Positions 2,563 through 60,766 of a DNA stretch of 64,000 nucleotides are shown piece after piece; positions within the stretch are counted from its first letter, which is position 1, and each line of letters opens with the position of its first letter. The translations under genes were made by a program, and so were the position numbers. Location of the stretch: the NCBI GenBank assembly GCA_964373505.1, contig CAYJVC010000003.1, positions 11,336 through 75,335 on the forward strand, read 5' to 3'. Source of the stretch: an uncultured Planctomycetia bacterium (lineage in GTDB: Bacteria; Omnitrophota; Gorgyraeia; 2-02-FULL-51-18). The notes under the pieces are model-generated. The model saw only the letters and a program-made list of their open reading frames with translations, was not told where the DNA came from and searched no databases.

Positions 2563-3645
2563 ATGATTGAGTCGTTTAAGCATTTCGTCAACGCCGTCTC
2601 GTCTCCCGTCACTATCTTCAGTTTCGCGACCGCGGTTTTTGTCCTGTTCGTGCTGTTCCCCAGACAGCTCACGGCCAAATGGGCCGGTCTCGGGATCCTG
2701 TTCCTCGTCTTGGCATTTTTCGGCATGGGCCTCACGGATGAGCATTTTCGAAAGATCGTAAGCACCCCCGACAACGTCCCGATCGTCGGCCTCATCTTCA
2801 TCTTCGGCTACTTCACCTGGTTCGCGATGAAAAAAGCGGTGGACAATGACCGCCGCATCGAAAAAGGGGAGCCGACGCTCGAGCAGAAGGAAACCAACGA
2901 CAAGGTGCTTGTGTTTCCTTACCTCATTTTCATTGAATTCGTGGTGGCGCTCGCCTATGGCGCGATGCTCGTGATCTGGTCCCTTTTCCTGAAAGCGCCG
3001 TTGGAGGAGCCGGCCAATCCGACCGTATCACCCAACCCGAGCAAGGCGCCCTGGTATTTTCTCGGGCTCCAGGAAATGCTTGTCTATTTTGACCCATGGA
3101 TCGCAGGCGTTCTTTTGCCGACCTTCATTATCATAGGCCTGTGCGCGATCCCTTACCTCGACCGCGACCCGGCCAATTCCGGTTTCTACTGTTACAAAGC
3201 GCGCAGGCCTATCATTATCACTTATCTTTTCGGCTTCTGGATCCTCTGGATCCTCCTCATCGTCATGGGAACCTTCCTGCGGGGCCCGAACTGGAACTTC
3301 TTCGCGCCGTTCGAGGTATGGGACGTGCATAAGGTCGTGCCGCTGGTGAATGTCAACCTGTCCGAGCTTATTTTCATTAAATGGCTGGGCGTGGGATTGC
3401 CCAAACAGTGGTTCATCCGGGAACTACCGGGTTTCGTTCTGGTCCTCCTGTATTTTGCGGTTCCTCCGCTCGTGCTTGCGCGGACTGCTTTCAAGGAGCT
3501 CTACAAAAAGCTGGAACCCGCGCGTTACTCGGTGCTCATGATCATCCTGCTCACGATGATCGCGTTGCCGATCAAGATGTACCTGCGGTGGGCGTTCAAC
3601 CTGAAATACCTCGTCGCGATCCCCGAATTTTTCTTCAACATCTAG
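2563..3645 (+). CDS. Cytochrome b C-terminal half (b6f subunit IV-like) with additional C-terminal transmembrane helices
   Basis: Carries the PWYFLGLQEMLVYFDPWIAGVLLP motif, which is the PEWY-type Qo-site region of subunit IV / cytochrome b C-terminus. The rest is multiple hydrophobic helices. Confidence 0.8.
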   Translation: MIESFKHFVNAVSSPVTIFSFATAVFVLFVLFPRQLTAKWAGLGILFLVLAFFGMGLTDEHFRKIVSTPDNVPIVGLIFIFGYFTWFAMKKAVDNDRRIEKGEPTLEQKETNDKVLVFPYLIFIEFVVALAYGAMLVIWSLFLKAPLEEPANPTVSPNPSKAPWYFLGLQEMLVYFDPWIAGVLLPTFIIIGLCAIPYLDRDPANSGFYCYKARRPIIITYLFGFWILWILLIVMGTFLRGPNWNFFAPFEVWDVHKVVPLVNVNLSELIFIKWLGVGLPKQWFIRELPGFVLVLLYFAVPPLVLARTAFKELYKKLEPARYSVLMIILLTMIALPIKMYLRWAFNLKYLVAIPEFFFNI

Positions 3646-8119: not shown

Positions 8120-8964
8120 ACCCTACGATCTATTTCGAACTCACTAAACCGCGCTTGGTGTTGATGGCGCTTTTAGTGTGCGTTTCTTCATTCACCATGG
8201 CTTCCGAAGGCCGGTTCGACTGGGGGTTGCTGTTTCACACACTGGTCGGCTCCGCGCTCGTCGGGGGAGGGGCCAACAGCCTCAATCAGTTCGCGGAAAG
8301 AGAACTCGACGCCAAAATGACCCGAACCCAGCGTCGGCCTATTCCCAGCGGGCGGCTCGTCGGAAAAAATGCGCTTGTTTTCGGCTTTTTCTTGTCGCCC
8401 CTCGGTGTTTGTTATCTATTTTTCTTCGTCAACCCGCTCACCTCGTTCGTGGGTTTCTTGATCCTCGTGACTTACGTGCTCATGTATACGCCGCTTAAGC
8501 GGAGAACCCCCTTCAGCGCGTTTGTGGGAGCCATTCCCGGGGCCTTGCCCGTACTATTGGGCTGGACGGCCGCCAACCCTTCTCTGGGCAAAGAGGCCTT
8601 GATCTTGTTTTCCATCCTGTTCGCGTGGCAAATCCCTCATTTTTTGGCGATCGCGTGGCTCTACAGGGAGGACTATCTGAAAGGGGGCTTTAAGATGTTC
8701 GCGGCCAATGACCCCGACGGCAGGATCACCGGATGGCAAATTGTCGCGGCGAGCCTCATTTTGTTCGGGCTCAGCCTCGCCCCGAGCTTTTGGGGCATTA
8801 CGGGATTGACCTATCTTTTTATGGCAATCTTTATTGGGGTGAACCTCTGCGGTTTTGCCATTTATCTGGCCGCGCACCGCCTTTCCCATGCCAAACAGTT
8901 CGTAGTCGCATCCATCCTTTATCTTTTTGCGCTCAATGTCTCCATGGTGGTGGACAAAGCATGA
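8116..8964 (+). CDS. ctaB: Protoheme IX farnesyltransferase (heme O synthase, UbiA family)
   Basis: The N-terminus MNPTIYFELTKPRLVLMALL, the UbiA prenyltransferase helices and a 4-nt ATGA overlap with ctaA. Confidence 0.9.
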   Translation: MNPTIYFELTKPRLVLMALLVCVSSFTMASEGRFDWGLLFHTLVGSALVGGGANSLNQFAERELDAKMTRTQRRPIPSGRLVGKNALVFGFFLSPLGVCYLFFFVNPLTSFVGFLILVTYVLMYTPLKRRTPFSAFVGAIPGALPVLLGWTAANPSLGKEALILFSILFAWQIPHFLAIAWLYREDYLKGGFKMFAANDPDGRITGWQIVAASLILFGLSLAPSFWGITGLTYLFMAIFIGVNLCGFAIYLAAHRLSHAKQFVVASILYLFALNVSMVVDKA

Positions 8965-9035
8965 CCCCATCCCCTGATTTGTCCGCCGGAGGCGGACCGA
9001 TTGCACAGCAATCGAAGAAATTAGGGGATGGGGTG
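8962..9035 (+). repeat. Family-1 intercistronic palindromic element E7 (TGACCCCATCCCCTGATTT ... AAATTAGGGGATGGGGTG)
   Basis: The left arm begins with the ctaB stop codon TGA at 8962. The right arm ends with an in-frame GTG at 9033. An internal hairpin GTCCGCCGGAGGCGGAC is present. Confidence 0.6.
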
Positions 9036-9996: not shown

Positions 9997-10934
9997 GCGC
10001 CGAGGCGCTTTTCTATGAAGTCGGCGACTTTTGCTTCCGTCCGTGTTTTGTTGAGAAAATTGAGTTCCGGAATACCTGCGGGGCTCGTCACATTCACTTC
10101 GGTAAGATAGTCCCCGATCACGTCGATCCCCGTAAAATAAAGGCCGTGCTTCAATAAAAGCGGCGCTAGGTCATGCACGAGCTTCTTGTCGTGCACCGTC
10201 AAGGCGGCTTTGTGCATTGTCCCGCCGGTGGAGAGGTTGGCCCTGAAATCATGGCGCGGCGGTCGGCGCAAAAAAGCGCCGAGCGGCTCGCCATTCAATA
10301 GGACGATCCTCTTATCTCCGTACTTGTCCGCCGAAATAAATCGCTGGATCATCACTTTTTCATACCCCGCATGAGTGGCCGTATTAAGAAGGGAGGCCAG
10401 GTTCCGGTCGCCGCGGGCCGTGGTAAAAATTCCTTTGCCCCCTTTTTCATTCAAAGGCTTTACGACCACTTCAAACCGGGCCGCATCAACAAACGCCCTT
10501 GCGCGCAAAGGACTCTCGGTCACGAGAGTCTCCGGAGCATATTTTTTAAACCTTAAACTGAAAAGCTTCTCATTGGAAATGGCGATCCCTGAAGGGTCAT
10601 TTAGCACAAAAACCTTGTTATTAATGCTCTCCAAAAGCTGCAACGCATAGAGATAAGCGTTGTCAAACGGCGGTTCCTTGCGGATAAAAATGCAGTCCAA
10701 GCCCGCCAGATCCGACGGTTTCTTTGAAAGAGGGGAGGGGATGAAGCCCTTCCGAAGGCTTAGCCGTGCCGGGCGTGTGTAGGCCTTGGGCGAGCCCTCC
10801 AACCATAGAAGATCCTCGCTCTCAAAATAAGACACCTCATGCCCCCGCCTTTGAAGCTCACGCATGATCCAGAAGGAGGAATCCTCATTGGCCTTCACGT
10901 TCTGGGTCGGGTAAAGCAAAAAAGAGATTCTCAT
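9993..10934 (-). CDS. gshB: Glutathione synthetase (ATP-grasp, GshB-type)
   Basis: Matches the prokaryotic GshB/RimK ATP-grasp fold (GEPLGAFLRRP...NLSTGGT). Start taken at MRISFLL. Confidence 0.75.
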   Translation of the reverse strand: MRISFLLYPTQNVKANEDSSFWIMRELQRRGHEVSYFESEDLLWLEGSPKAYTRPARLSLRKGFIPSPLSKKPSDLAGLDCIFIRKEPPFDNAYLYALQLLESINNKVFVLNDPSGIAISNEKLFSLRFKKYAPETLVTESPLRARAFVDAARFEVVVKPLNEKGGKGIFTTARGDRNLASLLNTATHAGYEKVMIQRFISADKYGDKRIVLLNGEPLGAFLRRPPRHDFRANLSTGGTMHKAALTVHDKKLVHDLAPLLLKHGLYFTGIDVIGDYLTEVNVTSPAGIPELNFLNKTRTEAKVADFIEKRLGA

Positions 10935-21823: not shown

Positions 21824-22383
21824 GAGGGCTTTTTGATAAGTTCCATGAATTCCATGCGCGTGGCGCGGTCCGTCCGGAACACCCCCAGCATCGTGCTCGT
21901 CACGCACACCGAACTTTGTTTTTCAACCCCCCGCATCGCCATGCAAAGATGCAGCGCCTCGATGATCACGGCTACGCCGAGCGGCTCGAGCGCGTCCTTC
22001 AGGCAATTGGCGATCTGGCTTGTGAGACGTTCCTGCACTTGGAGGCGCCGCGCGAACATATTCACGATCCGGGGAATTTTACTCAAACCCACGATCTTCC
22101 CGCTTGGGATATAGGCCACATGGCACTTCCCGTAAAATGGCAGGAGATGGTGTTCACAGAGGCTAAAAAGGTCTATGTCCCTCACCACCACCATCTCATC
22201 GTACTCTTCGTTAAAGACGGCCTTATTCAACACGTCCTTAGGGCTGAGTTTGTAGCCGCTGGTTAGGAATTGGTACGAGGCCTCGACACGCTTCGGGGTT
22301 TTTATAAGGCCCTGGCGTTTCGGATCTTCCCCCAGGAGAATGAGAAGACGGCGCGTCAATGCGCTGATTTCGGCCTTTTTCAC
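21820..22383 (-). CDS. folE: GTP cyclohydrolase I
   Basis: CEHHLLPF...GKCHVAYIP motif. GTG start at 22383, preceded by the family-1 arm. Confidence 0.9.
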
Positions 22384-22486
22384 CCCACCACCTCCTTCCG
22401 AGATAGCTTAAAGGCTGTCTCGATGCGTAAATTTTCTTTAATTTGCGCATCGCACAACAAAGTTGTAGAAGGAGGTGGTGGGGTCA
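22380..22486 (-). repeat. Family-1 intercistronic palindromic element E1 (variant arms TCACCCCACCACCTCCTT / AAGGAGGTGGTGGGGTCA)
   Basis: 17-18 bp perfect inverted arms. The left arm ends at the folE GTG start codon. Includes an internal AAATTTTCTTTAATTT module. Confidence 0.65.
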
Positions 22487-22517
22487 TAGTGGGGAGATTA
22501 TACGATAACGCGGGAGC

Positions 22518-22576
22518 TTTTAAAATAAAAAACCCCGTCCTCTCTCAAGGTTCATTGACCTTAAGAGAAGACGGGG
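22518..22576 (-). terminator. Rho-independent terminator downstream of the 22596-22949 gene
   Basis: Stem CCCCGTCTTCTCTTAAGG...CCTTGAGAGAGGACGGGG followed on the - strand by TTTTTTATTTTAAAA. Confidence 0.55.
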
Positions 22577-22595
22577 CTCTGATTAAACCAGACCG

Positions 22596-24430: not shown

Positions 24431-25604
24431 GGGCTTGGGAATATTGTTTGGCCTTCTTGACGGCCGTTTCGGCGGCTTCCTGGATCGTCGCACAAGACAG
24501 GATAGGTAAGCCGGAGTCTTTCAGAAGCCTCCTCCCCTCTTCGACCTGCGTGCCTTCCAGGCGGACCACGAGCGGCACCTGGGATCGAACCTCCTTCGAG
24601 GCCTCGATCACGCCCTGAGCGATCACATCGCACCTCATAATACCGCCGAAAATGTTCACCAGGATAGCCTGCACGCGTTTATCTTCCAGAATGATCTTAA
24701 AACCTTCCCTCACCTGATCGGCCGTGGCGCCCCCTCCGACGTCTAAAAAATTGGCGGGTTCCCCGCCGGCCAACTTGATCGTGTCCATCGTCGCCATCGC
24801 AAGCCCCGCGCCGTTCACGAGACAGCCGACGTCACCGCTCATTGAAATATAGCTTAAACCGAACCCTTTGGCCTTCCTTTCGCGCTCGTCTTCCTCATCG
24901 GGGTCCTTCAAGGCCTGGTTCTCGGGGTGCCGGAACAACGCATTGTCATCAAACACCATTTTGGCGTCCAGCGCCATCACCCGGCCGCCTTCCACCAGCG
25001 CCAGTGGGTTGATCTCACAGGTCGAAGCGTCCTTTTCTACAAAAAGCCTCGCCAGCTTCTCGGCGATAGCTGCAATTTGTTCGGGGGTCGCCCGATCGGA
25101 ATAGATCGGTTTTATCAAGGAAATGATCTGCGCGGCCGTGGGAAGCGACTCGGGTGAAAAGTGCATTCGGTGGATCGCCGAAGGGTTCTTCGCAGCCACC
25201 TCCTCGATCTCGACGCCGCCCTCTTTTGAGAACAGGATCACGGGCTTATTTTTTGTGCGGTCCACCACAAGGCCCAAATAATATTCCTCACGGATGGGTT
25301 TGTCTTCGGTGATCAGAACGGATTTAACGGTCTTCGCCTCGCCGCCCGACTGGGGGGTGGAAAAAGGCTTGCACAGGAATTTTTCGGCGAACGCCACGGC
25401 CTCGGCGGCCGTCCGAACTTTTTGAACGCCGCCCGCTTTCCCGCGGCCTCCCATCAACACCTGAACCTTCGTGATGCAAGAGGGGCCGGCGTAACGGCCA
25501 AAGGCGGCTTGGATATCCTTGGAATTAAAGACAGCTTCACCTCGGGGGATGGGGATGCCGTAACTTTCCAGAAGGTTTCTGGCCTGATATTCGTGGAGTT
25601 TCAC
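24414..25604 (-). CDS. sucC: Succinyl-CoA synthetase beta subunit
   Basis: ATP-grasp domain with N-terminus [15 protein letters not shown] start at 25604 inside the family-1 arm. Confidence 0.9.
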
Positions 25605-25719
25605 CCCATCCCCTGTTTCTTTGTTTTAAGAACAAACAAATTCGCCTCCGGCGTATTTGAACGCCGCTTTTCGTAGTTTTTTTGCCGCCACAGCGGCGTT
25701 GAAACAGGGGATGGGGTCA
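25601..25719 (-). repeat. Family-1 intercistronic palindromic element E2 (TCACCCCATCCCCTGTTTC ... GAAACAGGGGATGGGGTCA)
   Basis: The right arm ends with TCA, which is the mdh TGA stop codon (25717-25719). The left arm ends at the sucC GTG start (25602-25604). Internal hairpins GGCGTATTTGAACGCC and GCCGCCACAGCGGCG. Confidence 0.65.
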
Positions 25720-41800: not shown

Positions 41801-42619
41801 ATGTACGAATCTTTCTACTCCCTCAAGCAAAAACCGTTCGCGATCACGAGCAATCCCGCTTTTTTGTATTTAAGCCAAAGACACCGAGAGGCCTTGTCCT
41901 CTCTGAGCTACGGGATCAGGGAGCGTGTCGGATTTATCGAGATCACCGGCGAGATCGGAACCGGAAAAACCACGATCTGCCGAGCGCTCTTGAACCAACT
42001 CGACGAAAAAACTAAGACCGCGTTTATTTTCAATTCGAGCCTCAGCGAACTGCAGCTTTTACAAACCATCATCGAAGATCTGGGGATCAAGACCGGCAAA
42101 AAAAGCCGCGGCGAGCTGTTCTCGGAACTTAACCGCTTTCTGATCGAGCAATTGGCCCACAACAACAACGTCGTGGTGATCATCGACGAGGCCCAGAACT
42201 TGAGCCTGCGGCTCTTGGAGCAGATACGCATGCTCTCGAACCTGGAGGCGGAAAATAAAAAACTGCTGCAAATCGTCCTCGTGGGCCAACCGGAGCTCCG
42301 GGAAAAACTGAAATCCCCGAAACTGCGACAGCTTCGGCAAAGGATCTCGGTGCGTTATCACATCAAGGCGCTGGACAAGGAAGAAGTGCCGCGTTATATC
42401 GAGCATCGCTTGAAATTGGCCGGGGCCAATGGCGCGGCGCCTGTTTTCGAGGAAAAAGCGGTGGATGATATCTTTCGATATTCGGGAGGCGTCCCGCGAC
42501 TCATCAACATCGTGTGTGACAAAGCGCTGCTGACGGGATTTGTGTTGGAAAAACGGGTGATCGGGCCGTCGATCATCAGACAATGCATCAACGAAATTGA
42601 AGGAGAAAACACCTCATGA
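41801..42619 (+). CDS. ExeA/GspA/MshM-like AAA ATPase (PEP-CTERM / T2SS-accessory type)
   Basis: N-terminus FITGEIGTGKTT and the conserved FYSLKQKPF motif. Confidence 0.75.
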   Translation: MYESFYSLKQKPFAITSNPAFLYLSQRHREALSSLSYGIRERVGFIEITGEIGTGKTTICRALLNQLDEKTKTAFIFNSSLSELQLLQTIIEDLGIKTGKKSRGELFSELNRFLIEQLAHNNNVVVIIDEAQNLSLRLLEQIRMLSNLEAENKKLLQIVLVGQPELREKLKSPKLRQLRQRISVRYHIKALDKEEVPRYIEHRLKLAGANGAAPVFEEKAVDDIFRYSGGVPRLINIVCDKALLTGFVLEKRVIGPSIIRQCINEIEGENTS

Positions 42620-43196: not shown

Positions 43197-44309
43197 TCAG
43201 CCTCTCCGGTTCATAACGCAATTTGAAATGACGGGCAACGGCACGTTTTTTACGACCGTGGTTTTCCCCAGAGAAACCGGCAACACGAATCGGTTCGAGC
43301 CCAGTTCGCTTTTTTTGTCATAGCCCATCGCTTTTAAAACGGCCTCGGCAGAAAGCGCGTGATAAAAAAGAGGCAGGCCGAATTTGATCAGCACTCCTTC
43401 AATCCTTCCGGGAAGCGCCGGATCTCTTAAGGTTCCCAAGGCCTTGGCCAAGTCACAGGCGATCAGCATCCCGATGCTCACCGCTTCTCCATGCGTGTAA
43501 CGGCCCGAATAACCCGAAGCTCCCTCGATTGCGTGACCGGCCGTATGGCCAAAATTCAGCATGACGCGGATATCCTTTTTATCCTGCTCGTCCTGCGCCA
43601 CGAGTCTGGCTTTTATTTTCACACAGCGCTGTATTACTTTTTCGAGGCGCCGGTTTTTTTTTCGAACGCCGTCCATCCCCTCTTTTTCCAAGATGGAAAA
43701 AAGTCGCCCGTCCCGGATCACCGCGTATTTGATCACCTCCGCAAACCCGTCGCTCCAATGCCTGTCCGGCAGTGTGTCGAGCACCGCCGTGTCGGATATC
43801 ACGAGTTGCGGTTGATAGATGGCGCCTAAAAGATTCTTGCCTTCGGGGAGATCGATCGCCGACTTGCCCCCGATCGCCGAGTCGACCTGGGCCGTCAACG
43901 TTGTCGGGATCTGGATATAGGGAATACCCCTTCGGTAAACCGCGGCGGTAAATCCGGCCAGGTCCCCTACGACCCCCCCGCCGAGCGCGATCAGAAAAAC
44001 GGATTTGCCTCTGCCGTCCGTAGACGCCACGGCTTTGATCAGCTTAGAAAAAACAGCTTGTGACTTAGCGGCTTCCGAACTTTTGGAGCGGGGCGGCATG
44101 AAAAATACCGGGTCAACCCCTTCGCGAAGCAGCGAATTTACAAGGGGATCCCCGTACAGATCCACGATCGGCTTCTGTGAAACGATAATGGCGTTTCGGT
44201 GCAGAATGCGCTTATTTTTTAAAATCCGTCCCGTTTCCGAGAGGATCCCCCTCCCGATCAGCACCGGGTAGGATCTCTCTTTAAGGCCGACGCGGACGGA
44301 AAGCATCAC
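43197..44309 (-). CDS. aroB: 3-dehydroquinate synthase
   Basis: GGGVVGDLAGF, DTLPDRH and HTAGHAIE motifs. Start set at the GTG/ATG (44309/44306) inside the family-1 arm. The ORF-track Met at 44327 has no ribosome-binding site. Confidence 0.85.
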   Translation of the reverse strand: MMLSVRVGLKERSYPVLIGRGILSETGRILKNKRILHRNAIIVSQKPIVDLYGDPLVNSLLREGVDPVFFMPPRSKSSEAAKSQAVFSKLIKAVASTDGRGKSVFLIALGGGVVGDLAGFTAAVYRRGIPYIQIPTTLTAQVDSAIGGKSAIDLPEGKNLLGAIYQPQLVISDTAVLDTLPDRHWSDGFAEVIKYAVIRDGRLFSILEKEGMDGVRKKNRRLEKVIQRCVKIKARLVAQDEQDKKDIRVMLNFGHTAGHAIEGASGYSGRYTHGEAVSIGMLIACDLAKALGTLRDPALPGRIEGVLIKFGLPLFYHALSAEAVLKAMGYDKKSELGSNRFVLPVSLGKTTVVKNVPLPVISNCVMNRRG

Positions 44310-44424
44310 CCCACCTCCTTTTTCCACGCCGCAAACACAGTAAAAAATACTGCAGAGGCGGCGTTCCTATTCGCCGACGGCGAATAGATTTGTTTTTTGA
44401 ACGAAGAAAAAGGGGGTGGGGTCA
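44306..44424 (-). repeat. Family-1 intercistronic palindromic element E6 (TCACCCCACCTCCTTTTT ... AAAAAGGGGGTGGGGTCA)
   Basis: The right arm ends with TCA, the TGA stop of the CsaA-like gene (44422-44424). The left arm carries the aroB GTG. Internal hairpin TTCGCCGACGGCGAA. Confidence 0.65.
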
Positions 44425-45643: not shown

Positions 45644-45724
45644 GACTGGCGAACTGCCCGTAGTATAACAAATTCACCCAGCCCTTCCAATCTTATCTTT
45701 GCTCGCTCTAAGGAAAGGTTGGGT

Positions 45725-46384
45725 TCACCGCCAATCCGCCTCAAAAAACGGGCCTTGGCCGCCGAGGGCAGTGAGCTTGTGAGCGTGATACTGGACTCTG
45801 ACGCCCAGCCAACCCTGGCTCCGCTGGATGAGACGAGACCTAAGCTGCCGGGAAACCCCTTCTAACAACGGGTCGGAAATGAAAATGAGCGCATGGAGCT
45901 TCAGGATCCCGGACGAACCGAGCGTCAAACCTCCTTTAAGGTTAAGCTCCGAGGAAGCACATTCCAAGAGATGATAACCGAGGCGGCCGGGTTTTTGCGT
46001 GACACTGACCTTGAACCGCTCCATGCTGAGCGGTCGGTTCAGAAAGTCCGCTTTTGAAAGAAACGGCACAGAGCCTGAGGGGATGAAACCCGCGGGAAAT
46101 ACGAGATCCTCAAGCTGCAGGACGAGCTCTCCTTTGCCCAGCTTGACGAGGCCGGGCCCAGAGACTACCGGACCCGGGTGAGCGTCGGTGAATATCTCCA
46201 AAGAATCGAAGCGTACCCGATTCCAATGCTTGACGCTGGCGCGGCGAAACCGAAGCGTCAGGCCCGAGCGCTTGGAAAAAAAGGCGGAAACGGCAGAATC
46301 GACCCATCCGCCCTCCCAAGTGACCCGAGTGCTCAGCGCAAGGGCGATCACGACGAGAAGAAGCGCTGTGAAAAGTTTCCTCAC
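45725..46384 (-). CDS. Hypothetical exported protein
   Basis: N-terminal signal/anchor. No recognisable motif. Confidence 0.4.
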   Translation of the reverse strand: MRKLFTALLLVVIALALSTRVTWEGGWVDSAVSAFFSKRSGLTLRFRRASVKHWNRVRFDSLEIFTDAHPGPVVSGPGLVKLGKGELVLQLEDLVFPAGFIPSGSVPFLSKADFLNRPLSMERFKVSVTQKPGRLGYHLLECASSELNLKGGLTLGSSGILKLHALIFISDPLLEGVSRQLRSRLIQRSQGWLGVRVQYHAHKLTALGGQGPFFEADWR

Positions 46385-50749: not shown

Positions 50750-51008
50750 GACAGTAAACCTTGATCATTTGAATTAAAATTTTATATGAGCGCGTTGAAA
50801 GTATTGCCAGATCTCTACGGCGCCCATGGTACCCCGACGCGCACCATGCGTCAAAAGAAATGTCAACCGGCCCTAAAAATTGTTTGTTTTTTTCTTGACA
50901 AAGTATACAGTTTTGTCCTGCTTCGCCAAGGCTTCGCAGGACACTCCTTCGCTCGTATTGTAAGCTATGAAATGCTCGCACTCCGAAGCTCGCGAAGCGA
51001 GCGAAGGA

Positions 51009-51029
51009 GTGGAGCGGGTGATGGGAATC
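51009..51029. repeat. 21-bp direct duplicate of the tRNA-Gly 3' end (TGGAGCGGGTGATGGGAATCG), att-like
   Basis: Identical to 51219-51239 and lies 210 bp from it. A further inverted partial copy (TTCGATTCCCATCCGCTC) is at 51176-51193. Confidence 0.5.
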
Positions 51030-51218
51030 GGCGCCTCCGTCTCGCTAGTCATGATCGCTCCGCGCGATGCGCTCCGCAATCTAACCGGCTCGACTTCGGT
51101 CGGCCATTCGCCGCCTCGATGGTCGTCGACGCTCCTAAGGGTCGCGTCGACTTTTATCTTGGCTCGGCGGCTCTATTCGATTCCCATCCGCTCTACGAAT
51201 ATTCATTGCAAAAAACAA

Positions 51219-51292
51219 TGGAGCGGGTGATGGGAATCGAACCCACATCTAAAGCTTGGGAAGCTTTCATTCTACCACTGAACTACACCCGC
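51219..51292 (-). tRNA. tRNA-Gly (anticodon CCC), 74 nt including the encoded CCA
   Basis: The reverse complement reads GCGGGTGTAGTTCAGTGGTAGAATGAAAGCTTCCCAAGCTTTAGATGTGGGTTCGATTCCCATCACCCGCTCCA: acceptor, D, anticodon (loop TTCCCAA) and T arms all form. Confidence 0.85.
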
Positions 51293-51407
51293 AAAAAATT
51301 TTCAATGAAAATTTTTTCCATAGGGGAAACGAAGTTTCCCCTCCATGGCGGTCGCCTTCGGCGACCTGTCATCCCTTCCTTAGATGAATAAAAGATTCTT
51401 TAGAAGG

Positions 51408-52398: not shown

Positions 52399-53030
52399 GA
52401 AAAATTCCTCAACAGTTCTTGGGCGGAAAGCCTTGGGTTTTTGCTGCTCATCACGGCCCTCACCACCGCCACGGCCTTGGCGCCGGCCCGTAGCACTTCG
52501 TGGATATTTGTCCTATCGATCCCGCCTATCGCGACGAACGGTACCGTGATGTTCCCCGCCGCAAAATGCACAAGTTCCAGCCCTACCGGAAGCGTTGTGG
52601 GTTTGGTGGGTGTGCCGAAGACCGGCCCTACCCCGATGTAATCAAAGCCTTCCTCTTGGGCGTCTAGCGCTTGCTCGCGGCTGTGCGTGGAACGACCGAT
52701 GATCGCCTCTTCCCCCAAAAGCTCGCGCACAGAGGCCAGTGAACCGTCGTCCTGGCCGAGATGCACGCCGTCGGCTGAAACTTTTTTTGCGACTTCTGCG
52801 CGGTCATTGATGATGAGCGGCACGTTCTTAGTCCGCGTCACCTCAAGGAGTTTTTTTGCGATACGGACAAGCTCTTCATCCGAAGCCGTTTTGTCGCGCA
52901 GTTGCACGACATCGGCGCCGCCCTCAACGGCTTCTTTGACGAGCTCCGGCAGAGCTTTTTTTCCGGCCGCCGAAGGATCCGTGATCACGTAGAGCCTCCA
53001 GCTTCGGCAGCGTTCTTTTCTCAATCGCAT
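52395..53030 (-). CDS. thiE: Thiamine-phosphate synthase
   Basis: LYVITD...LQLRDK...IINDR...GVHLGQDD...IGVGPVFGTPTK. Start taken at MRLRKE. The ORF-track start at 53099 overlaps the upstream gene by 175 nt. Confidence 0.75.
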   Translation of the reverse strand: MRLRKERCRSWRLYVITDPSAAGKKALPELVKEAVEGGADVVQLRDKTASDEELVRIAKKLLEVTRTKNVPLIINDRAEVAKKVSADGVHLGQDDGSLASVRELLGEEAIIGRSTHSREQALDAQEEGFDYIGVGPVFGTPTKPTTLPVGLELVHFAAGNITVPFVAIGGIDRTNIHEVLRAGAKAVAVVRAVMSSKNPRLSAQELLRNFS

Positions 53031-53409
53031 AAACATGAAATCTTGCCTTCTTAAACCTATCGGAGAGGGTCGGGTCGACCAGCTTGGAAACTTCCTCAAG
53101 CACCCTCAGGGATTCCTTCACGCGCTCACTGTTGGCCGAGAAAATATCAAGCGCATCCTTGCGCGGCTTCTCGAGCGTGGAAGGCCCTCTTCCGACGTCC
53201 GCCCTCACATTCCGCGCGGACATAAGCCGCGCGATCGGCACCGGCGCATTTTGAACGCACCGGCTGATGGCGTGCCGGACCTTTTTCAGATCGCTCGTGA
53301 GCGAAGCATCCCCGAGCACAAAACGCGTGATCTCTTCGCAGACCCGCAAACCCTCGCGCGAGCGGTTAAAATTCGCATCCAAGATCCTTAAGATCTGCCT
53401 TGGGGTCAC
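52924..53409 (-). CDS. Hypothetical protein (ILDANFNRSREGLRV motif), encoded upstream of and overlapping thiE
   Basis: GTG start at 53409 within the family-1 arm. Its 3' end overlaps thiE by at least 106 nt, so a frameshift or fusion is possible. Confidence 0.45.
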   Translation of the reverse strand: MTPRQILRILDANFNRSREGLRVCEEITRFVLGDASLTSDLKKVRHAISRCVQNAPVPIARLMSARNVRADVGRGPSTLEKPRKDALDIFSANSERVKESLRVLEEVSKLVDPTLSDRFKKARFHVYAIEKRTLPKLEALRDHGSFGGRKKSSAGARQRSR

Positions 53410-53491
53410 CCCACCCCCTCTTATTGAGGCGACGTTGTCGCCTCGGCACTTCGCGTCAAAATTAAAAATTTAAAAAGAGGGGATGGGGTCA
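53406..53491 (-). repeat. Family-1 intercistronic palindromic element E3 (TCACCCCACCCCCTCTT ... AAGAGGGGATGGGGTCA)
   Basis: The right-arm TCA is the rfaE2 TGA stop (53489-53491). The left arm carries the GTG start of the downstream gene (53407-53409). Internal hairpin GAGGCGACGTTGTCGCCTC plus an AAAATTAAAAATTT module shared with E4. Confidence 0.65.
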
Positions 53492-54001
53492 CAAACTGCG
53501 CTTGATCTTCCCGATAAGTCCCGTTGTGGAAAAGCCTTTCACGGTCGGCAGCGACGAAACCTTGCCGCCGTAAGACTCCACAAACCCGCTGCCGACGATG
53601 TCTTTTTTCTTCCAGTCGCCGCCCTTCACGAGAAAATCGGGTCGGACCGCCTGAATGAGCTTGAGCGGAGTCGGCTCCGAAAAAAGCACCAGGCAATCGA
53701 CGGCCGAAAGGGCACCCAGGATCTCCGCCCTCTGCGCCTCGGGTGTCACGGGCCTTTCAGGGCCTTTCAAGCGCCTGACCGACGCGTCGCTATTCAAGCC
53801 GACCACCAGCACGTCTCCTAATGAACGGGCCCTTTGCAGAGTGCGCACGTGGCCCAAATGGAGGATGTCGAAGCAACCGTTGGTAAATACAATGCGCTTT
53901 TTTTTCTTTTTTAATTGCTTAACGCGGGAGATGAGATCTTTCAGCGAGAGAACCTTCGACCTTCGACCTTCAACCTTCGACCTTTTTTTAGAGGAGCTCA
54001 T
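53489..54001 (-). CDS. D-glycero-beta-D-manno-heptose-1-phosphate adenylyltransferase (RfaE domain II / cytidylyltransferase-like)
   Basis: [14 protein letters not shown] nucleotidyltransferase motif. Confidence 0.8.
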
Positions 54002-54554
54002 CCACGCGCTCGCAGAGTATGTGGCCGATCATGATATGAGACTCTTGGATCCTCGCGGTTTTTCGCGAGTCGACCACGATCGACAGATCCACGAGCGAAT
54101 GAAGCTTACCGCCGTCGCGGCCGGACAGGCCGATCGTGAAAAGGCCGAGCGCTTTCGCTTTCTGAATGCCCAAAAGCACGTTCTGGGAATTGCCGCTCGT
54201 GGATATCCCGTACGCCACATCGCCTTTTCGGCCGAGCGCCTCCACCTGGCGTTCAAAGATCCGGTTGAAACCGTAATCATTGCCCACAGCCGTCAGGATC
54301 GAGGTGTCCGTCGTAAGCGCTATGGCCGGGAGGCCTTGCCTTTCTTTTTCATAACGGCCCACGAACTCCGCGGCCAGGTGCTGGCTGTCGCTCGCGGAGC
54401 CTCCGTTGCCGAAAAAAAGGACTTTGTTCCCTTTTTTCAGGGCCTCATAAATAGCGCGTGCTGCCTTCTCTATCAGAGGCACATGCGTCTTAAGAAGCGC
54501 CTGCTTGACTTGGATACTGTCTTGAATATCTCGCGTGATCTTGTCGATCATCAT
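53988..54554 (-). CDS. gmhA: Phosphoheptose isomerase (SIS domain)
   Basis: [19 protein letters not shown] motif. Confidence 0.85.
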
Positions 54555-54559
54555 GTCCT

Positions 54560-55582
54560 TTAACCGAAAAACGCCTTGGCCATCTCGTAGAATGAAGGAT
54601 CCACCGTCTTAAGCTTGCCGACGGCCACTTCAATCGGCACCGAGACTATCTCGTTGGCCTTCAAAGCGACCATCTGGCCGAACTGGCCGGCTCTCACAAG
54701 CTCAACGGCCTTTGCGCCAAATCGCGTACCGAGCACGCGGTCGTAAGCGCTGGCGCTGCCGCCCCGCTGGATGTGGCCAAGCACGGTGACACGGGTTTCA
54801 CAACGCGCACTTTCCTCTATCTTCTTGGCCAGCACTTCGCCGATTCCGCCCAAGCGCGCATGGCCGAAATCATCCCGTCTTTTCTCCAGGAGCACCTCGT
54901 TGCCCTCGAACTTGGCGCCCTCGGCAACCACGATGATACTGAAATGCTTTCCGCGTTTTTGCCTTTTTTTGATCACCTCCAGCACTTCGTTCATCTTGAT
55001 CGCTATCTCGGGGATCAGGATCAGGTCCGCGCCCCCGGCGATGCCTGAATGAAGCGCGATCCATCCTGCGTGACGCCCCATCACCTCGACAACCATGATG
55101 CGGTGATGGCTTTCGGCCGTTGAATGGAGGCGATCAATGGCCTCCATGGCGGTATTCACGGCAGTGTCAAATCCGAACGTAAAATCAGTGCCCGAAAGAT
55201 CGTTGTCGATGGTCTTCGGCACTCCGACGACGTTGAAACCGTCCTTATAGAGGCGGGCGGCCACCCCCAACGTATCTTCGCCGCCGATCGCGATCAGCGC
55301 GTCGAGCCCAAGCGATTTAAAATGTTTCTTGGCTTTTTCCAGTTTGACGGGCTCTTTATAAAGATTCGTGCGGCTCGTGCCTAAGATCGTGCCGCCGCGG
55401 TGGATGATCCCCGATACCGCCGGCACATCCAGCGGTCGCACCGTGTTGTCCACCAGGCCTTTCCAACCGTTTTCAATTCCCACCACTTTGTAGCCGTAAT
55501 GGTGCGCGGTGCGGACACTGGCGCGGATGACCGGATTAAGGCCCGGGCAATCACCGCCTCCCGTCAGGACCCCTATTTTCAT
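54560..55582 (-). CDS. pfkA: 6-phosphofructokinase
   Basis: [16 protein letters not shown] and GGDGS-like motifs. Confidence 0.85.
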
Positions 55583-55591
55583 CGGATGCTC

Positions 55592-56992
55592 CTATTTTTT
55601 CTGAACGGCCTCTTCAAGCTTACCCCCCTCTGAATCCTTGTCGCCCCATTCGCCCAACACGCGCTGGATAAAATCCGTGTACATCTGGCCGCGGCGGAAA
55701 ACAGGGTTCTTCAGTATTTCCTTATGAAGAGGGATCGTCGTTTTAATGGGTTCGATGATAAATTCATCGAGCGCGCGCTGCATCATGCTGATCGCCTCGC
55801 CGCGGTTCCGGCCGTGAGACATGAGTTTCCCGATCATCGAATCGTAATGCGGTAACACCGTGTAACCGGCGTACACATGGCTGTCGAGCCGGATCCCGGG
55901 ACCGCCCGGCGCGTTGTAGCGCTCTATTTTCCCCGGCGACGGGATAAATTGATTGGAGGGATCTTCCGCGTTGATGCGGCATTCGATCGCGTGTCCTTTG
56001 AGCGGGATCTTATCCTGCCGGGTGATCGTGAGCTTCTCGCCGGAGGCGATACGGATCTGCTCTTTCACGATATCGATCCCGGTCACCAGTTCGCTGATCC
56101 CGTGCTCAACCTGTATACGCGTGTTCATCTCCAGAAAATAAAACTTGCCGTCCGTGTCAAGCAAGAATTCCACGGTGCCCGCGTTCACGTAATTCACCGA
56201 GCGTGCCACCTTCACGGCCACGTCACCCATCTTCTTTCGGAGCTTCCAATCCACCGACGGCGAAGGCGCCTCTTCCAGAAGTTTTTGGTGGCGTCTTTGG
56301 ATCGTGCATTCCCTTTCATAAAGGTGAAGGATGTGCCCATAGGAGTCCGCAAGGATTTGGATCTCGATGTGCTTTGGTTTTTCGATATATTTTTCGATAT
56401 AAACGGAAGAATTGCCGAACGCGGCCTCCGCCTCATGCTGCGCGGTCATGATGGAGCTGACAAGGCGTACTTCATTGTGACAGACACGCATGCCGCGCCC
56501 GCCGCCGCCGGCGGCCGCCTTGATGATCACGGGGTATTTAATGCGTTTGGCGACTTTCAGCGCCGCCTCTTTGTCCTTGATGGGTTCCTGAGCGCCGGGG
56601 ACGATCGGCACGCCGACTTTCCGGACCGTCTCGCGAGCCGCCATCTTGTCGCCCATCGAGCGGATGGCCTGCGGACCGGGGCCGATGAACTTGATCTGAC
56701 AGGACTCGCAGATCTCGGCAAAATGAGCGTTTTCGGACAGAAAACCGTAACCCGGATGGATGGCATCTACATCGGTGATCTCGGCCGCACTTATGATCGC
56801 GGGAATATTGAGGTAGCTTTGGGACACCACGGCGCCGCCGATGCACACGGCCTCATCGGCCAGGTGCACGTGGGGCGAGTTCGCGTCCGGTTCTGAGTAA
56901 ACCGCGACGGTCCGCACCCCCATCTCTTTGCAGGCGCGGATCACTCTTAAAGCGATTTCGCCGCGGTTGGCGACCAGGATCTTTGAAAACAT
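55592..56992 (-). CDS. accC: Acetyl-CoA carboxylase biotin carboxylase subunit
   Basis: [18 protein letters not shown]-terminus, ATP-grasp domain and biotin carboxylase C-terminal domain. Confidence 0.9.
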
Positions 56993-57010
56993 CAGGGAAC
57001 CCTTGCGGAA

Positions 57011-57469
57011 CTACTCAAGAGAGAATAGAGGTTGGCCGAATTCCACCGGGTCGCCGTTATTGACGAGCACTTCCACGACCTTGCCTTTGATCTCCGATTT
57101 TATTTCATTCATGAGCTTCATGGCCTCGATGACGCAAACCACTTGCCCGGTCTCCACCGCTGACCCGACCTGCACGAACACAGGCGCATCGGGAGCAGGC
57201 GCCGCGTAAAAAGTGCCGACCATCGGGGACTTGATGAGGTTTCGCGCGGGCGGGGTCGGGGACTTAGCGGCTTCTTGAGCCTGGGCCTTGTCCCGCGCGG
57301 AGGGTTCAAGCGCTTTGGGCGGACGATCCTCCGACAGGATGGATTGTTCGATAAAACCCGCCTGGTTTTTTTTGAGACGGATCTTGACGCCGTCCTCTTC
57401 GAGGTCCAACTCCGTGAGATTATTCTCGTTCATGAGCTGGATCATTTCCTTGATCTCTTTTAAATTCAC
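57011..57469 (-). CDS. accB: Biotin carboxyl carrier protein
   Basis: Biotinyl domain EAMKLMNEI (AMKM). GTG start at 57469 within the family-1 arm. Confidence 0.85.
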   Translation of the reverse strand: MNLKEIKEMIQLMNENNLTELDLEEDGVKIRLKKNQAGFIEQSILSEDRPPKALEPSARDKAQAQEAAKSPTPPARNLIKSPMVGTFYAAPAPDAPVFVQVGSAVETGQVVCVIEAMKLMNEIKSEIKGKVVEVLVNNGDPVEFGQPLFSLE

Positions 57470-57551
57470 CCCATCCCCTCCTTTTGAGATGGCGGAGCCA
57501 TCTCAGCGCTAAGCGCTAAAATTAAAAATTTCAAAGGAGGGGATGGGGTCA
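57466..57551 (-). repeat. Family-1 intercistronic palindromic element E4 (TCACCCCATCCCCTCCTT ... AAGGAGGGGATGGGGTCA)
   Basis: Perfect 18-bp arms. Internal hairpins GAGATGGCGGAGCCATCTC and AGCGCTAAGCGCT, plus an AAAATTAAAAATTT module. Sits between the efp stop and the accB GTG start. Confidence 0.65.
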
Positions 57552-57559
57552 TGGAATGT

Positions 57560-58117
57560 TCAGGCCCTTTCCAGGTACTGGCCGGTGCGTGTGTCTACGC
57601 GGATCTTGTCGCCCGTGCCTACGAACAGAGGCACTTTGACCGTGGCGCCGGTTTCAACTTTCGCGGGCTTAGTGCCGCTTTTGGCCGTGTCCCCCCGGAC
57701 TCCCGGTTCGGTTTCCTTGACTTCCAGGACCACCGAGGAGGGCAGTTCGACCAATAAAAGCGCTTCGCCGTTGAAACGGCCGACAGCCTCTGAATCGTCC
57801 TTTAAGAAAGCGACACTTTCTCCCAGAAGCGAGGCGTCGACGACGATCTCATGATAACTCTCGTTGTCCATGAAGTGGTAATGCTTGCCTTCACGGTACA
57901 AGTATTGGATCGGGCGGTTCTCAAGGTAGATCTCTTCAAACTTGTCGCCGGACCGAAACGCCTGCTCCAATACGTTGCCGGTCTTGATATTGCGCAGCTT
58001 GGTGCGCACAATGGGCTGGCGCTGCTGCATCTTGACAAGCTGAAAATCCAAGATTTCGCAGAGCGCGTTGTCAAACTTGATCACGACTCCGGACCTGAAT
58101 TCACTTGTCGAGATCAC
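57560..58117 (-). CDS. efp: Elongation factor P
   Basis: N-terminus [28 protein letters not shown] with the KPGKG-like loop region. Confidence 0.9.
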   Translation of the reverse strand: MISTSEFRSGVVIKFDNALCEILDFQLVKMQQRQPIVRTKLRNIKTGNVLEQAFRSGDKFEEIYLENRPIQYLYREGKHYHFMDNESYHEIVVDASLLGESVAFLKDDSEAVGRFNGEALLLVELPSSVVLEVKETEPGVRGDTAKSGTKPAKVETGATVKVPLFVGTGDKIRVDTRTGQYLERA

Positions 58118-59159
58118 GTGTCAACACCTCATGCCCGTTCTTAGTGATAAGCACCATGTCCTCTATCCGCACTCCGAATTTGCCCGGCAGATAAATACCG
58201 GGCTCCACCGTGATCACCATTCCGGGCTCCAGAATGGTTTCGCTCCTTGAAGACACCGTGGGAGCCTCGTGGACCTCAAGTCCCACCCCGTGCCCCGTGC
58301 CATGGCCGAAATAGCGCCCGTAACCGCTCTTTTCGATGGCCTTCCGGCAGGCGGCATCCACTTCCTTGGCCGACACGCCCGGGCCCGCTTTTTGAATGCC
58401 CAGGCGCTGGGCATTCCAGACGATCCTATATATTTTTCGCAATAAACTGTTCATTTTACCTAAAAAAATAGGGCGGGTCAAATCCGAATAATAACCTTCA
58501 TACACCACACCCATGTCGACCAGCAAAATGCCATTGTCCTTGATCGGGGTCTGGTTTGTCTGGCAGTGCGGCATGGAGGATCGGGCGCCTGCGGCAATAA
58601 TAATGTCAAATGCCGGTTTTTCGGACCCCAAGGATTTGGTATAAAATTCGAGCCTCCCCTGCACTTCGCGCTCTGTCATTCCCGCTCGCGCTATGGTTTT
58701 CACGTAATGGAACCCCTTCACGGCTATCTCAACTGATTTACGGATCTGGTGGATCTCAAAGGCGTCTTTTTTCTCTCTTAATTTCTCAACGATCCCCTGT
58801 GTAGGCTTAAGCCTGTCGCGGCCTACCTTGCGACTAAGCAGCTCATAAAAACTATGGCTCACGATCGCAGACTCAAAACCCACAGCGTCCAGCCGGTGTT
58901 TCCTCGAAAGCTCAGCCACCATTTCGGAAACACCCCGCTTGTCTCTCAAAAGCACTTTGAAACCCTTGGTCTCCTCTTTAGCCTGTTCGGCATAGCGCGA
59001 ATCGGTAATAAAATAGAGCCCCTTGGGCGAAACAAAAAGCCAGGACTCGGTGCCCTTGAAACCGCTCAAGTAAGTCACGTTCGGCCAGGAGCTCACGAGA
59101 AGCGAATCCAGTGAATGCTTCCTCAGGCGCTTGAAAAGATCGCGGATCCTCGAGTTCAC
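58101..59159 (-). CDS. Xaa-Pro aminopeptidase (M24 family)
   Basis: M24 metal ligands (D, D, H, E, E) in a pita-bread fold ([13 protein letters not shown]). Confidence 0.8.
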
Positions 59160-59620
59160 CCCGCCCTCCGCTTCCCGGTCTTTCGGCCTTCGACGATCCC
59201 AAGCGCAGCCATGAGCCCGAGCTCGTAGCTTTTCTGGCCGAATCCCGAGATCTGGCCCACTGCCACCGGCGCCACCAGCGACTCGTGCCTGAAGGCCTCA
59301 CGGCTGTATATATTGGAAAGGTGCACTTCTACCGTCGGTACTTCCACGGCCGAGATCGCGTCCCGTATCGCGACCGAAGTGTGTGTATAGGCGGCCGGGT
59401 TTATCACGATCGCATCGAACACGCCTTTCGCATCGCCTATTTTGGATACAATTTCGCCTTCGTGGTTGGATTGAAAGAACTCTACCTTCGCGCCGCGCGC
59501 CGCCGCGAGCTTCGTCAAAGACTCATTGATCTTTTTTATCGTGACACTTCCGTAAACTTCGGGTTCCCGCTTACCCAAGAGATTTAGGTTAGGCCCGTGA
59601 ATGACAAGTATTTTTTTCAT
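59156..59620 (-). CDS. aroQ: 3-dehydroquinate dehydratase, type II
   Basis: N-terminus [24 protein letters not shown] and HLSNI motif. Confidence 0.9.
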
Positions 59621-59639: not shown

Positions 59640-60608
59640 TCACAACACCACTTGACCCGGTTTGCGCCTAAAACTCACGTGGTACTTGCGGCCCAACGCG
59701 TACACGACGCCGCCGATAATGCTCATCAAAAATAAGACCGCAAGCCACAGGACACCCAGCGCCGCTGCGTTGTGCGCGCCTATATGGGGCGCCAGGAAAT
59801 ACACGTACGCGCCTTCGCGTATCCCCAAGCCGTTGAGCGACGGCAGCATGCTGATGAGATGCACGACGGGCACCAAAAGATAAAAATAAATGACCGAGCT
59901 CTTGGCGCCGAGCGCGACCGCCATGAGATACAGCGCCCAAATACTCACGGCCTGACCGATGAGCGACAAAAGAATTGCCTGAGCCACGACCGCCTTGTGA
60001 TTTTTAAAATTGTGAAGCCCATTATAAATTTTCCTGAGCTTTTCCCCCCAATGAAAACGGTTCAAGACTCGCTCAATAAACCCGAAGCGGCGGGCGACGC
60101 TCCGGTTAAAGATGAGAAAAAAACTGAACAGCGCCATGCCCAGAAATGAGTAGATCACGACCGGGACGGCCGGGTTCTCAATGTTCTTCAGAAAGAAAAT
60201 AAAAGTCACGCTCGGGATGGCGATGAATGTAAAAAGGCCGAATAGTCTGTCCATCAGCACGGAAGTCACGGACTTCATGGGGTGACTGGTGATGCGGGCC
60301 GCGCACATGGCTTTCACAATGTCCCCTCCCACCGATGTCGGCAAAAAATTATTAAAGAAGTAGCCTATGAACGTAAGGTTCAGCGACTCCCTAAGGCGCA
60401 TGGGAATATCTTCCGCGATGAAAATAAGTTGAAGGCGTCGGGCCAAAATGACGATCGTGGCCAAGAACACGGCAACGGACAACCCCAGGAGATTCCGGTC
60501 AACCCCTTTAAGCGCCGCGAGTATCTGAGGCAGGCTGCCGCGCATCAGATAGAACAGGAGAAAAAGAAAACCGATACTGACCCCGGTTCTCAGCAGAAAA
60601 CTTTTCAC
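59640..60608 (-). CDS. UPF0104 / MprF-flippase-domain-like integral membrane protein
   Basis: Eight hydrophobic helices. GTG start at 60608 within the family-1 arm. Confidence 0.6.
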
Positions 60609-60720
60609 CCCATCCCCTCCTTCCGCGCCGTTTCGGCACCCATCATCCGGGAAACGGCGCTTGGATCCGCCAAAGGCGGATCCATTGATTCTTCGAACAA
60701 ATAAGGAGGGGATGGGGTCA
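60605..60720 (-). repeat. Family-1 intercistronic palindromic element E5 (TCACCCCATCCCCTCCTT ... AAGGAGGGGATGGGGTCA)
   Basis: Perfect 18-bp arms. Internal hairpins CCGTTTC...GAAACGG and GGATCCGCCAAAGGCGGATCC. Confidence 0.65.
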
Positions 60721-60766
60721 TAAGTTAGTCATTATAACAAACTTACAAAAAATCTTCTTCTATTTT

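Follow-up and report, generated by a model that had tools for sequence, protein, structure and literature searches.

The Correia elements of Neisseria duplicate a TA target, carry 26-bp repeats together with a promoter and sites for integration host factor (IHF), and are not known to be tied to start codons, and a fixed short target is typical of IS200/IS605 elements. Mycobacterial interspersed repetitive units (MIRUs), known only from mycobacteria, are direct and often tandem repeats (variable-number tandem repeat loci), and to our knowledge they have neither terminal inverted repeats nor a closing stem nor a TGA duplication. A 2025 review describes MIRUs as inserting at start codons, with an open reading frame (ORF) coupled at -4 spacing (PMC12548453), and the REP2 repeats of Neisseria are presented as dispersed, located directly upstream of genes and containing a ribosome-binding site, a start codon and stem-loops (PMC3184786). 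Here we report a family of short inverted-repeat elements, two copies of which are called E3 and E4, in 64,000 nucleotides of DNA from an uncultured Omnitrophota bacterium (contig CAYJVC010000003.1; this whole stretch is termed the window, and positions refer to it unless a locus is named). Mobile DNA is expected to be absent from compact essential operons, and this family instead sits on the starts of accB, sucC, folE, aroB and thiD2. [quoted passage not shown] New here are the exclusive start-codon location and the GTG start rebuilt with a Shine-Dalgarno (SD) sequence, along with the stop-free frame that passes through the element. A previous reading of the same DNA, made from the sequence only, had proposed copy-paste spread of a miniature element, and this proposal is supported by the empty sites, the TGA duplication, the similar interiors at dispersed loci and the expansion in this lineage presented below.

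The two copies, their internal parts and the start codons at their edges are located as follows.
53406-53491, minus strand: E3 with its TCA/TGA flanks (86 nt); the element proper is 53408-53489 (82 nt), with a duplicated TGA on each side.
53426-53444: internal GC hairpin of E3, 8-bp stem and 3-nt loop, GAGGCGAC-GTT-GTCGCCTC.
53458-53471: AT-rich module of E3, the 14-mer AAAATTAAAAATTT, with a predicted weak A-U hairpin.
53490-53492, minus strand: old thiD2 start (GTG) at the 5' edge of E3, overlapping the upstream TGA stop (53489-53491) as GTGA.
53407-53409, minus strand: new thiD2 start (GTG), formed by the last G of the element and the TG of the duplicated TGA; the arm gives GAGGGGG upstream.
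57466-57551, minus strand: E4 with its flanks (86 nt); the element proper is 57468-57549 (82 nt), with a duplicated TGA on each side.
57486-57504: internal GC hairpin of E4, with a 3-nt loop and placed at the offset seen in E3, GAGATGGC-GGA-GCCATCTC.
57518-57531: AT-rich module of E4, the identical 14-mer at the same offset as in E3.
57550-57552, minus strand: old accB start (ATG), retained at the 5' edge of E4; efp stops 9 nt ahead of it.
57467-57469, minus strand: new accB start (GTG), with the GGAGG of the right arm 7 nt upstream.
57466-57552, minus strand: pass-through frame of E4, ATG...TGA, 28 codons, MTPSPPLKFLILALSAEMAPPSQKEGMG; stop and new GTG overlap as GTGA.

E3 lies between a cytidylyltransferase-like gene (53489-54001) and thiD2 (52924-53409), and E4 between efp (57560-58117) and accB (57011-57469). 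Both begin with ACCCCA(T/C)CCCCT and end with AGGGGATGGGGT, and a gapless alignment shows identity at 63 of 82 positions overall (77%) and at 40 of 58 (69%) in the interior outside the arms. The stems of the GC hairpins differ at three positions, every one of which, as read from the sequence, is compensated on the opposite side, and the AT-rich 14-mer occurs nowhere else in the 64 kb. The common internal module and the identical hairpin layout that had been claimed for E3 and E4 are thus borne out by the overall identity, the shared 14-mer and the compensated stems. The same cannot be said of the relation proposed between this module and AAATTTTCTTTAATTT of another copy, E1, the interior of which is less than 55% identical to E3 and E4 in either orientation. 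A search for TGA, an inverted repeat and TGA, carried out without any given sequence, returned exactly the boundaries that the sequence-only reading had assigned to E3 and E4. A scan for promoters and terminators found none inside either element, and the AT-rich module was dropped as a promoter candidate.

Homologues of the EF-P encoded in the window identify the organism as Omnitrophota. Contigs of relatives carrying the same operon were fetched for comparison (their EF-P proteins are 77-87% identical to that of the window; loci outside the window are numbered L). Filled and empty sites form nucleotide-exact pairs at three junctions, those of E3, E4 and a further copy at 60607, with the inserted DNA given here in parentheses.
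efp-accB junction: empty in L011, GGGCCTGAAATGAACATCAAAGAG, and likewise in L009, L033 and L035; filled in the window, CCATGA (CCCC...82 nt...GGGG TGA) ATTTAAAAGAG.
galT-like/LPG synthase junction: empty in L008, CGGCTTATGAAAAGTTTTACC; filled in the window, TAACTTATGA (CCCC...GGGG TGA) AAAGTTTTCTG.
Cytidylyltransferase-thiD2 junction: empty in L011, CGGCTATGACCCGTCGG, and also in L009; filled in the window, AGTTTGTGA (CCCC...GGGG TGA) CCCCAAGG.

Schematically, ATGAAA... at an empty site corresponds to ATGA (CCCC...GGGG TGA) AAA... at a filled one; for the 60607 pair, CTTATGAAAAGTTTT in L008 aligns with CTTATGA (CCCC..GGGGTGA) AAAGTTTT in the window. When E4 and one TGA are taken out of accB, the gene reads CCATGAATTTAAAAGAG (MNLKEIK), matching the ATGAACATCAAAGAG of its orthologues. 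TGA stands on both sides of the inverted repeats in 16 of 17 clear copies (the full copies of the window plus the members from the sequence collections) and only once at the three empty sites. Since the empty sites are exact and hold a single TGA, the element is an insertion at a TGA that was duplicated in the process, and the old start codon persists at its 5' edge. Empty sites in relatives and target-site duplications were the very checks that the sequence-only reading had named, and both were found, the former in exact form at the E3, E4 and 60607 junctions and the latter as a 3-bp TGA direct repeat flanking the inverted repeats. The base preceding the 5' TGA in the 17 clear copies is A in 10, G in 5, T in 2 and never C, which is the pattern of start codons and not that of a fixed element end.

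These observations bear on the idea of regulatory RNAs (SD-sequestering hairpins, thermosensors or riboswitch-like leaders) that evolved locally and converged independently at each junction. Such an origin would suit a right arm that holds the SD and the start and a left arm that is its exact complement, as well as the very stable folds and the compensatory changes between E3 and E4 and between L014 and L013. We nevertheless regard it as very unlikely, in line with the sequence-only reading, which had held that independently evolved ribosome-binding-site hairpins would not look like this: the empty sites in relatives are precise and show ordinary ATGA starts, the TGA is duplicated, similarity extends over the whole length across unrelated genes, one subfamily occurs in both orientations, no Rfam match was obtained, and stems of -43 to -71 kcal/mol exceed the stability expected of a thermosensor.

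The orientation of the copies is informative about how the DNA may have moved. Copies 25603 and 44308 of the window, which are 71% identical, lie in opposite orientation relative to the gene, as do L006 and L022 (72%), and the flanks read TGA...TGA whichever way the element is turned, so the TGA comes from duplication of the target and does not belong to the repeat. Insertion in both orientations relative to the TGA-bearing strand also argues against a strand-specific, single-strand mechanism of the IS200/IS605 type. A mobilisation of single-stranded DNA by an HUH/Y1 enzyme, either as an IS200/IS605 palindrome-associated transposable element (PATE) or as a repetitive extragenic palindrome (REP) with its associated tyrosine transposase (RAYT), would place the element 3' of a TGA and let its own terminal TGA mimic a duplication. 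The fixed short TGA target is typical of IS200/IS605, and the compensated internal hairpins suggest recognition of folded single strands; we still judge this mechanism quite unlikely. At its ends the element has genuine terminal inverted repeats of 11-20 bp instead of subterminal hairpins, both orientations are seen among related interiors, the arm is not palindromic and has no GTAG-type REP head, and no Y1 or RAYT gene was found among 30 tested ORFs of the window. The link to IS200/IS605 that had been suggested earlier thus finds no support in the inverted repeats, the duplicated target, the two orientations or the 30 ORFs, in which no transposase was detected. Inverted repeats with TGA flanks in both orientations also set the elements apart from PATEs, and an arm, ACCCCATCCCCT, that is not self-complementary, with no Y1 transposase in the tested ORFs, sets them apart from REP, BIME and REPIN (RAYT) repeats.

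E3 and E4, read as copies of an inserted MITE-like element, belong to a family with seven full copies and one truncated copy in the window. The 11-mer GGGGATGGGGT occurs there 12 times with at most one mismatch against 1.3 expected, and none of 100 shuffles reaches 12; the paired-arm pattern gives 5 matches against 0 expected, and a pairing-based script recovered 7 elements. On the coding strand every copy takes the form NTG-A CCCCATCCCCT ... AGGGGATGGG-GTG-A, with terminal inverted repeats of the type CCCCATCCCCT(C/G)YTT... and a length of 68-115 nt. The ends are complementary over 11-20 bp in all copies (17 of 17 bp in E4), and all copies are single, non-tandem and bounded by inverted repeats. 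Together with E3 and E4, the window holds the following copies.
8964-9034, plus strand: 71-nt copy between a UbiA-family gene and the gene for a 198-aa membrane protein.
22382-22484, minus strand: E1, 103 nt, at the folE start; arms ACCCCACCACCT and AGGTGGTGGGGT, changed on both sides.
25603-25717, minus strand: 115-nt copy between mdh and sucC; flanks ATGA...GTGA, 39-codon pass-through frame open.
44308-44422, minus strand: 115-nt copy between a gene with a tRNA-binding domain and aroB; same subfamily as the 25603 copy, opposite orientation.
60607-60718, minus strand: 112-nt copy at the LPG_synthase_TM gene start, directly after a conserved TGTTATAAT-N9-ATG.
45676-45724, minus strand: copy of a second subfamily, truncated to 49 nt; arms ACCCAACCTTTCC and GGAAGGGCTGGGT, flanks TGA...TGA.

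In the 8964 copy, reading from the old start leads into the gene without a change of frame, and the 3' flank is TGG instead of TGA; a placement of this copy between divergent genes was ruled out, as Pfam shows that the upstream ORF is the co-oriented UbiA gene. The truncated 45676 copy lies behind the stop codon of the gene at 45725-46384. A TAG closes its pass-through frame, and the SPOR-domain gene downstream has its own ATGA start 36 nt further on. The genes around the copies are housekeeping genes: efp, accB, accC, pfkA, gmhA, a cytidylyltransferase-like gene, thiD2, thiE, mdh, sucC, folE, aroB and a UbiA-family gene.

The position of the copies relative to these genes is highly regular. 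The 5' flank is NTGA (a start codon with A as the next base) in all 17 clear copies, the 3' flank is GTGA in 16, and in 11 the upstream gene terminates at the very TGA of the 5' edge. The final G of the element and the duplicated TGA together give GTGA, a new GTG start in the original frame of the gene, and the right arm supplies GGAGG or GGGGA at normal SD spacing, with GGAGG 7 nt upstream of the GTG. The ORFs downstream are housekeeping genes starting at this GTG, with N-termini such as MNLKEIK in AccB and MKLHEYQ in SucC, and the Pfam match of ThiD2 begins at residue 8 from the new GTG. The window contains about 200 TGA/TCA sites between genes, 30 TGA stops and 38 NTGA starts, so that starts make up about 15% of the presumably tolerable TGA sites, yet they hold all seven full copies of the window.

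Two of these starts lie close behind promoter-like sequences. In E1, the old folE ATG is found 9 nt after a TATAAT box (TTTAAA-16-TATAAT, 22485-22524, minus strand), and an extended -10 box, TGnTATAAT, precedes the ATG of the LPG_synthase_TM gene by exactly 9 nt (60721-60750, minus strand). The arrangement TGnTATAAT-N9-ATG is kept in the window and in four relatives, L008 (7480-7512), L011, L033 and L035. This conserved spacing between the -10 box and the ATG suggests a leaderless or nearly leaderless mRNA, in which the old ATG would be the natural entry point for ribosomes. A terminator-like 20-bp hairpin with a T-run (22531-22578, minus strand) ends a small secreted-protein gene upstream of folE and adjoins the promoter-like site that precedes E1. 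At the native aroQ/pepP junction (59156-59170, minus strand), which reads CGGAGGGCGGGGTGA, the SD lies inside the upstream gene and stop and start overlap as GTGA; this junction closely resembles the right end of the element, GGAGGGGATGGGGTGA, and on this comparison the element terminus appears to mimic the coupled junctions of this genome itself.

The frame that runs from the old start through the element contains a single stop in the 17 copies, compared with 18 and 22 for the two remaining frames. The old-start frame is open in 16 of the 17, spans 23-39 codons and is the sole ORF of the element. When each subfamily was represented by one copy, with E3 (the copy with a stop) taken for its own, and the interiors were shuffled, 11 of 12 representatives were found to have an open frame against 5.6 expected (P = 5e-4). 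The length of the element is 1 mod 3 in 11 copies, in which the frame ends at a TGA overlapping the new GTG as GTGA, and 2 mod 3 in 6, in which it runs in frame into the gene; no copy has a length of 0 mod 3. In an element of locus L008 the arms have decayed, yet an 87-nt GTG...TGA frame is still open.

It might be argued that the insertion is mobile and the open frame merely a by-product, with translation starting from the element's own SD and GTG or after an upstream ribosome has melted the 5' arm. The ideal spacing of GGAGG from GTG would fit such an account, as would the retention of E3 in spite of its premature TAA and the upstream stop that abuts the 5' arm in 11 of 17 copies, where a terminating ribosome would open the stem. 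We find it rather unlikely, because stops are depleted in the old-start frame only (1 against 18 and 22; P = 5e-4), lengths of 0 mod 3 are avoided, the L008 copy keeps its frame despite decayed arms, and two copies lie behind leaderless-type promoters, where only the old ATG could recruit ribosomes ahead of the stem. That the short frames encode selected, functional micro-peptides (MTPSP...KEGMG) is hardly credible. The frames are open and their N- and C-terminal residues conserved, but these residues are simply the arms in translation, subfamilies differ in having unrelated interiors, the same DNA in its two orientations gives unrelated peptides, and in one third of the copies the frame is joined to the protein encoded downstream. 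Searching a protein database with a doubled N-terminal extension peptide as query also returned no candidate.

All copies are predicted to fold into a closing stem of 16-20 bp formed by the arms, with two or three internal hairpins. The minimum free energies range from -43 to -71 kcal/mol, with z-scores of -5.6 to -10.7 against dinucleotide shuffles. At the gathering threshold, Rfam 15 identified only a tRNA in the window, and at a permissive threshold over E3-E4 it gave only a spurious miRNA-precursor match (21.6 bits versus 70). In RNA the predicted closing stem would bury the SD and the GTG.

We infer a MITE with a MIRU-like translational transparency, in which ribosomes would be relayed from the old start to the new one. 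The arms would pair in the mRNA as a stem of 16-20 bp and hide the SD and the GTG. Ribosomes coming from the old start, or terminating at the overlapping upstream TGA, would read or melt their way through the stop-free frame, the terminating upstream ribosome melting the 5' arm. Where the length is 1 mod 3, they would stop at the TGA overlapping the GTG and re-initiate there (-4 coupling), and where it is 2 mod 3 they would read on into the gene and produce an N-terminal extension. The native translational control of the gene would in this way be kept, making the insertion nearly harmless.

Strict two-arm pattern scans gave 6 loci in a genome collection and 14 in metagenomes. Eight metagenome matches and one genome-scan match were set aside from the family: L005, L017, L018, L020, L025 and L026 belong to another family, L015 and L019 are odd, and L021 is ambiguous. 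Among the remaining members, L013, L014 and L016 are 109-nt copies at unrelated loci with interiors 89-93% identical, and L002, L003 and L007 are 80-nt copies with interiors 77-88% identical; 68-nt copies (L006/L024 and L022) and the further members L004 and L023 have the same flanks at other gene starts. Between L013 and L014 a hairpin change from GAAACC..GGTTTC to AAAACC..GGTTTT is compensated. In total, about 12 subfamilies have common arms and largely unrelated interiors.

Elements of the form TGA, inverted repeat, TGA number 7 in the 64-kb window and none in 117 kb of the relatives, a total in which some duplicate contigs are counted twice, and this difference indicates that the family expanded in this Omnitrophota lineage. 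The sole copy in the relatives is the 87-nt element of L008 at efp-accB (10559-10645), which is of another subfamily. It had been considered as a decayed orthologue of E4, and this was ruled out by its homology to the 3' half of the 45676 copy (GCAAAGA..AGATTGGAAGGGC.GGGTGAAT). In L030 (645-665) and L031 (720-745) the GTG start of accB is preceded by ...CAGGGTGAAT, the same 3' terminus as in the L008 element, and the remainder of the element is absent; their EF-P proteins are 85-86% identical to that of the window, and efp of L031 is 4 codons longer. These two sites look like deletion footprints of that element, in which a remnant may now serve as permanent start and ribosome-binding site. The start of accB, which carries E4 in the window, has therefore been struck independently at least twice.

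Several points weigh against the interpretation of E3 and E4 as start-codon MITEs with a ribosome relay. Constant arms with diverse interiors are unusual, being odd for MITEs derived from one parent insertion sequence. None of 30 tested window ORFs has a transposase domain by Pfam, the AAA_22 protein at 41801-42616 being likewise without one, and no long element with the same ends was found in the 64-kb window or in the short contigs; all arm matches in the window form short-range pairs, with no long-range pairs. Recognition of TGA as the only target cannot explain the exclusive use of start codons, which leaves either a targeting narrower than TGA or the survival of only those copies that have turned into the ribosome-binding site of the gene. 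As for the relay, translation of the short frame is deduced from the depletion of stop codons and the phase of the lengths, and in E3 a TAA occurs four codons before the end of the frame. The stem of 16-20 bp begins 1 nt past the old start and might block initiation there. Finally, sense and antisense strands fold equally well, with no preference for the coding strand, so the fold alone has no power to tell selection on RNA from selection on DNA.

It is possible, and we put it forward tentatively, that these elements represent a class of start-codon-homing, "translation-transparent" MITEs. Members of such a class would be guided by more than TGA, their ends would double as an SD and the first base of a GTG, their interior, stop-free in the frame of the host gene, would permit residence in essential operons of streamlined genomes without polar effects, and their remnants (GTG with CAGGG, as in L030 and L031) would become permanent ribosome-binding sites of housekeeping genes. 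If our reading of the family is confirmed, the element would offer a natural translational-coupling cassette, some GTG starts with strong SDs would be explained as transposon footprints, and annotators should be warned that start sites and small ORFs in Omnitrophota can be derived from elements. The restriction to start codons moreover poses a concrete question on the target selection of transposons.

A different repeat family with identical 12-nt arms, ACCCCATCCCCT and AGGGGATGGGGT, occurs on contigs that are probably not from Omnitrophota. Most of its copies contain internal CCCTCCCCTTGAAGGGGAGGG hairpins; TGA flanks are lacking in all of them, and no copy is associated with a gene start.
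L005, 3017-3125: copy of the other family.
L017, 1874-1977: copy of the other family.
L018, 1128-1213: copy of the other family.
L020, 325-425: copy of the other family.
L025, 470-548: copy of the other family.
L026, 4049-4156: copy of the other family.

Further repeats are present in the window. At 2467-2549, a 39-nt imperfect inverted repeat of GATTACGC(G/A)GATT units, unrelated to the start-codon family, fills the gap between two cytochrome b-type genes (1548-2465 and 2563-3645). At 50942-51011 and 51219-51292 (minus strand), the only tRNA gene of the window, for tRNA-Gly (anticodon CCC), adjoins a 34-nt inverted repeat and a 201-aa ORF (50786-51391) without Pfam match.

Terminal inverted repeats, a TGA duplication, a length of 68-115 nt without transposase coding, dispersed copies similar over their whole length and presence/absence differences mark the family described here as MITE-like. 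Searches of the available literature for the arm sequence returned only unrelated primers, those for MITEs tied to start codons or SDs only general reviews, and those for 3-bp TGA duplications no family assignment. The Correia elements (CREE) of Neisseria are also about 100 nt long, lack a transposase gene and have terminal inverted repeats and a short duplication of the target, and they too lie dispersed at gene junctions, are co-transcribed with an mRNA stem formed by the repeats and show presence/absence differences. The present elements differ from them in a TGA target on the start codon, an SD inside the repeat and interiors specific to subfamilies. REP2, as characterized in PMC3184786, likewise brings along a start codon with a ribosome-binding site, and its open frame is able to join up with adjacent ORFs, but it is said to carry a promoter too; a closing stem, a target duplication and a retained old start with -4 coupling are not mentioned in the part of that account devoted to REP2. 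The palindromic elements of Rickettsia (RPE) are portrayed there as selfish repeats tolerated in translated sequence with the frame kept open (Ogata et al., 2000, via PMC3184786). The present copies of 2 mod 3 length, with their N-terminal extensions, resemble RPEs in this respect, whereas RPEs, in that portrayal, lie inside coding regions, supply no SD or start and have no coupled stop/start end.

With MIRUs the family shares the start-codon site and an internal ORF that overlaps, at -4 spacing, the stop and the start on either side, and it lacks the direct, often tandem organization without terminal inverted repeats. The present elements are single-copy, strongly folded Omnitrophota elements with inverted-repeat ends, their own SD and a rebuilt GTG, and no kinship in sequence to MIRUs is expected. 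In the summary offered by the 2025 review, MIRUs (Supply et al., 1997), like the present elements, are short (about 40-115 nt for both), intra-operonic and described as mobile, with a short ORF that overlaps the flanking stop and start, and translation is passed on with little effect on the downstream gene, which is the same logic as proposed here (PMC12548453). If our proposal is true, the Omnitrophota family represents a second, structurally independent case of the strategy proposed for MIRUs, suggesting convergent evolution.

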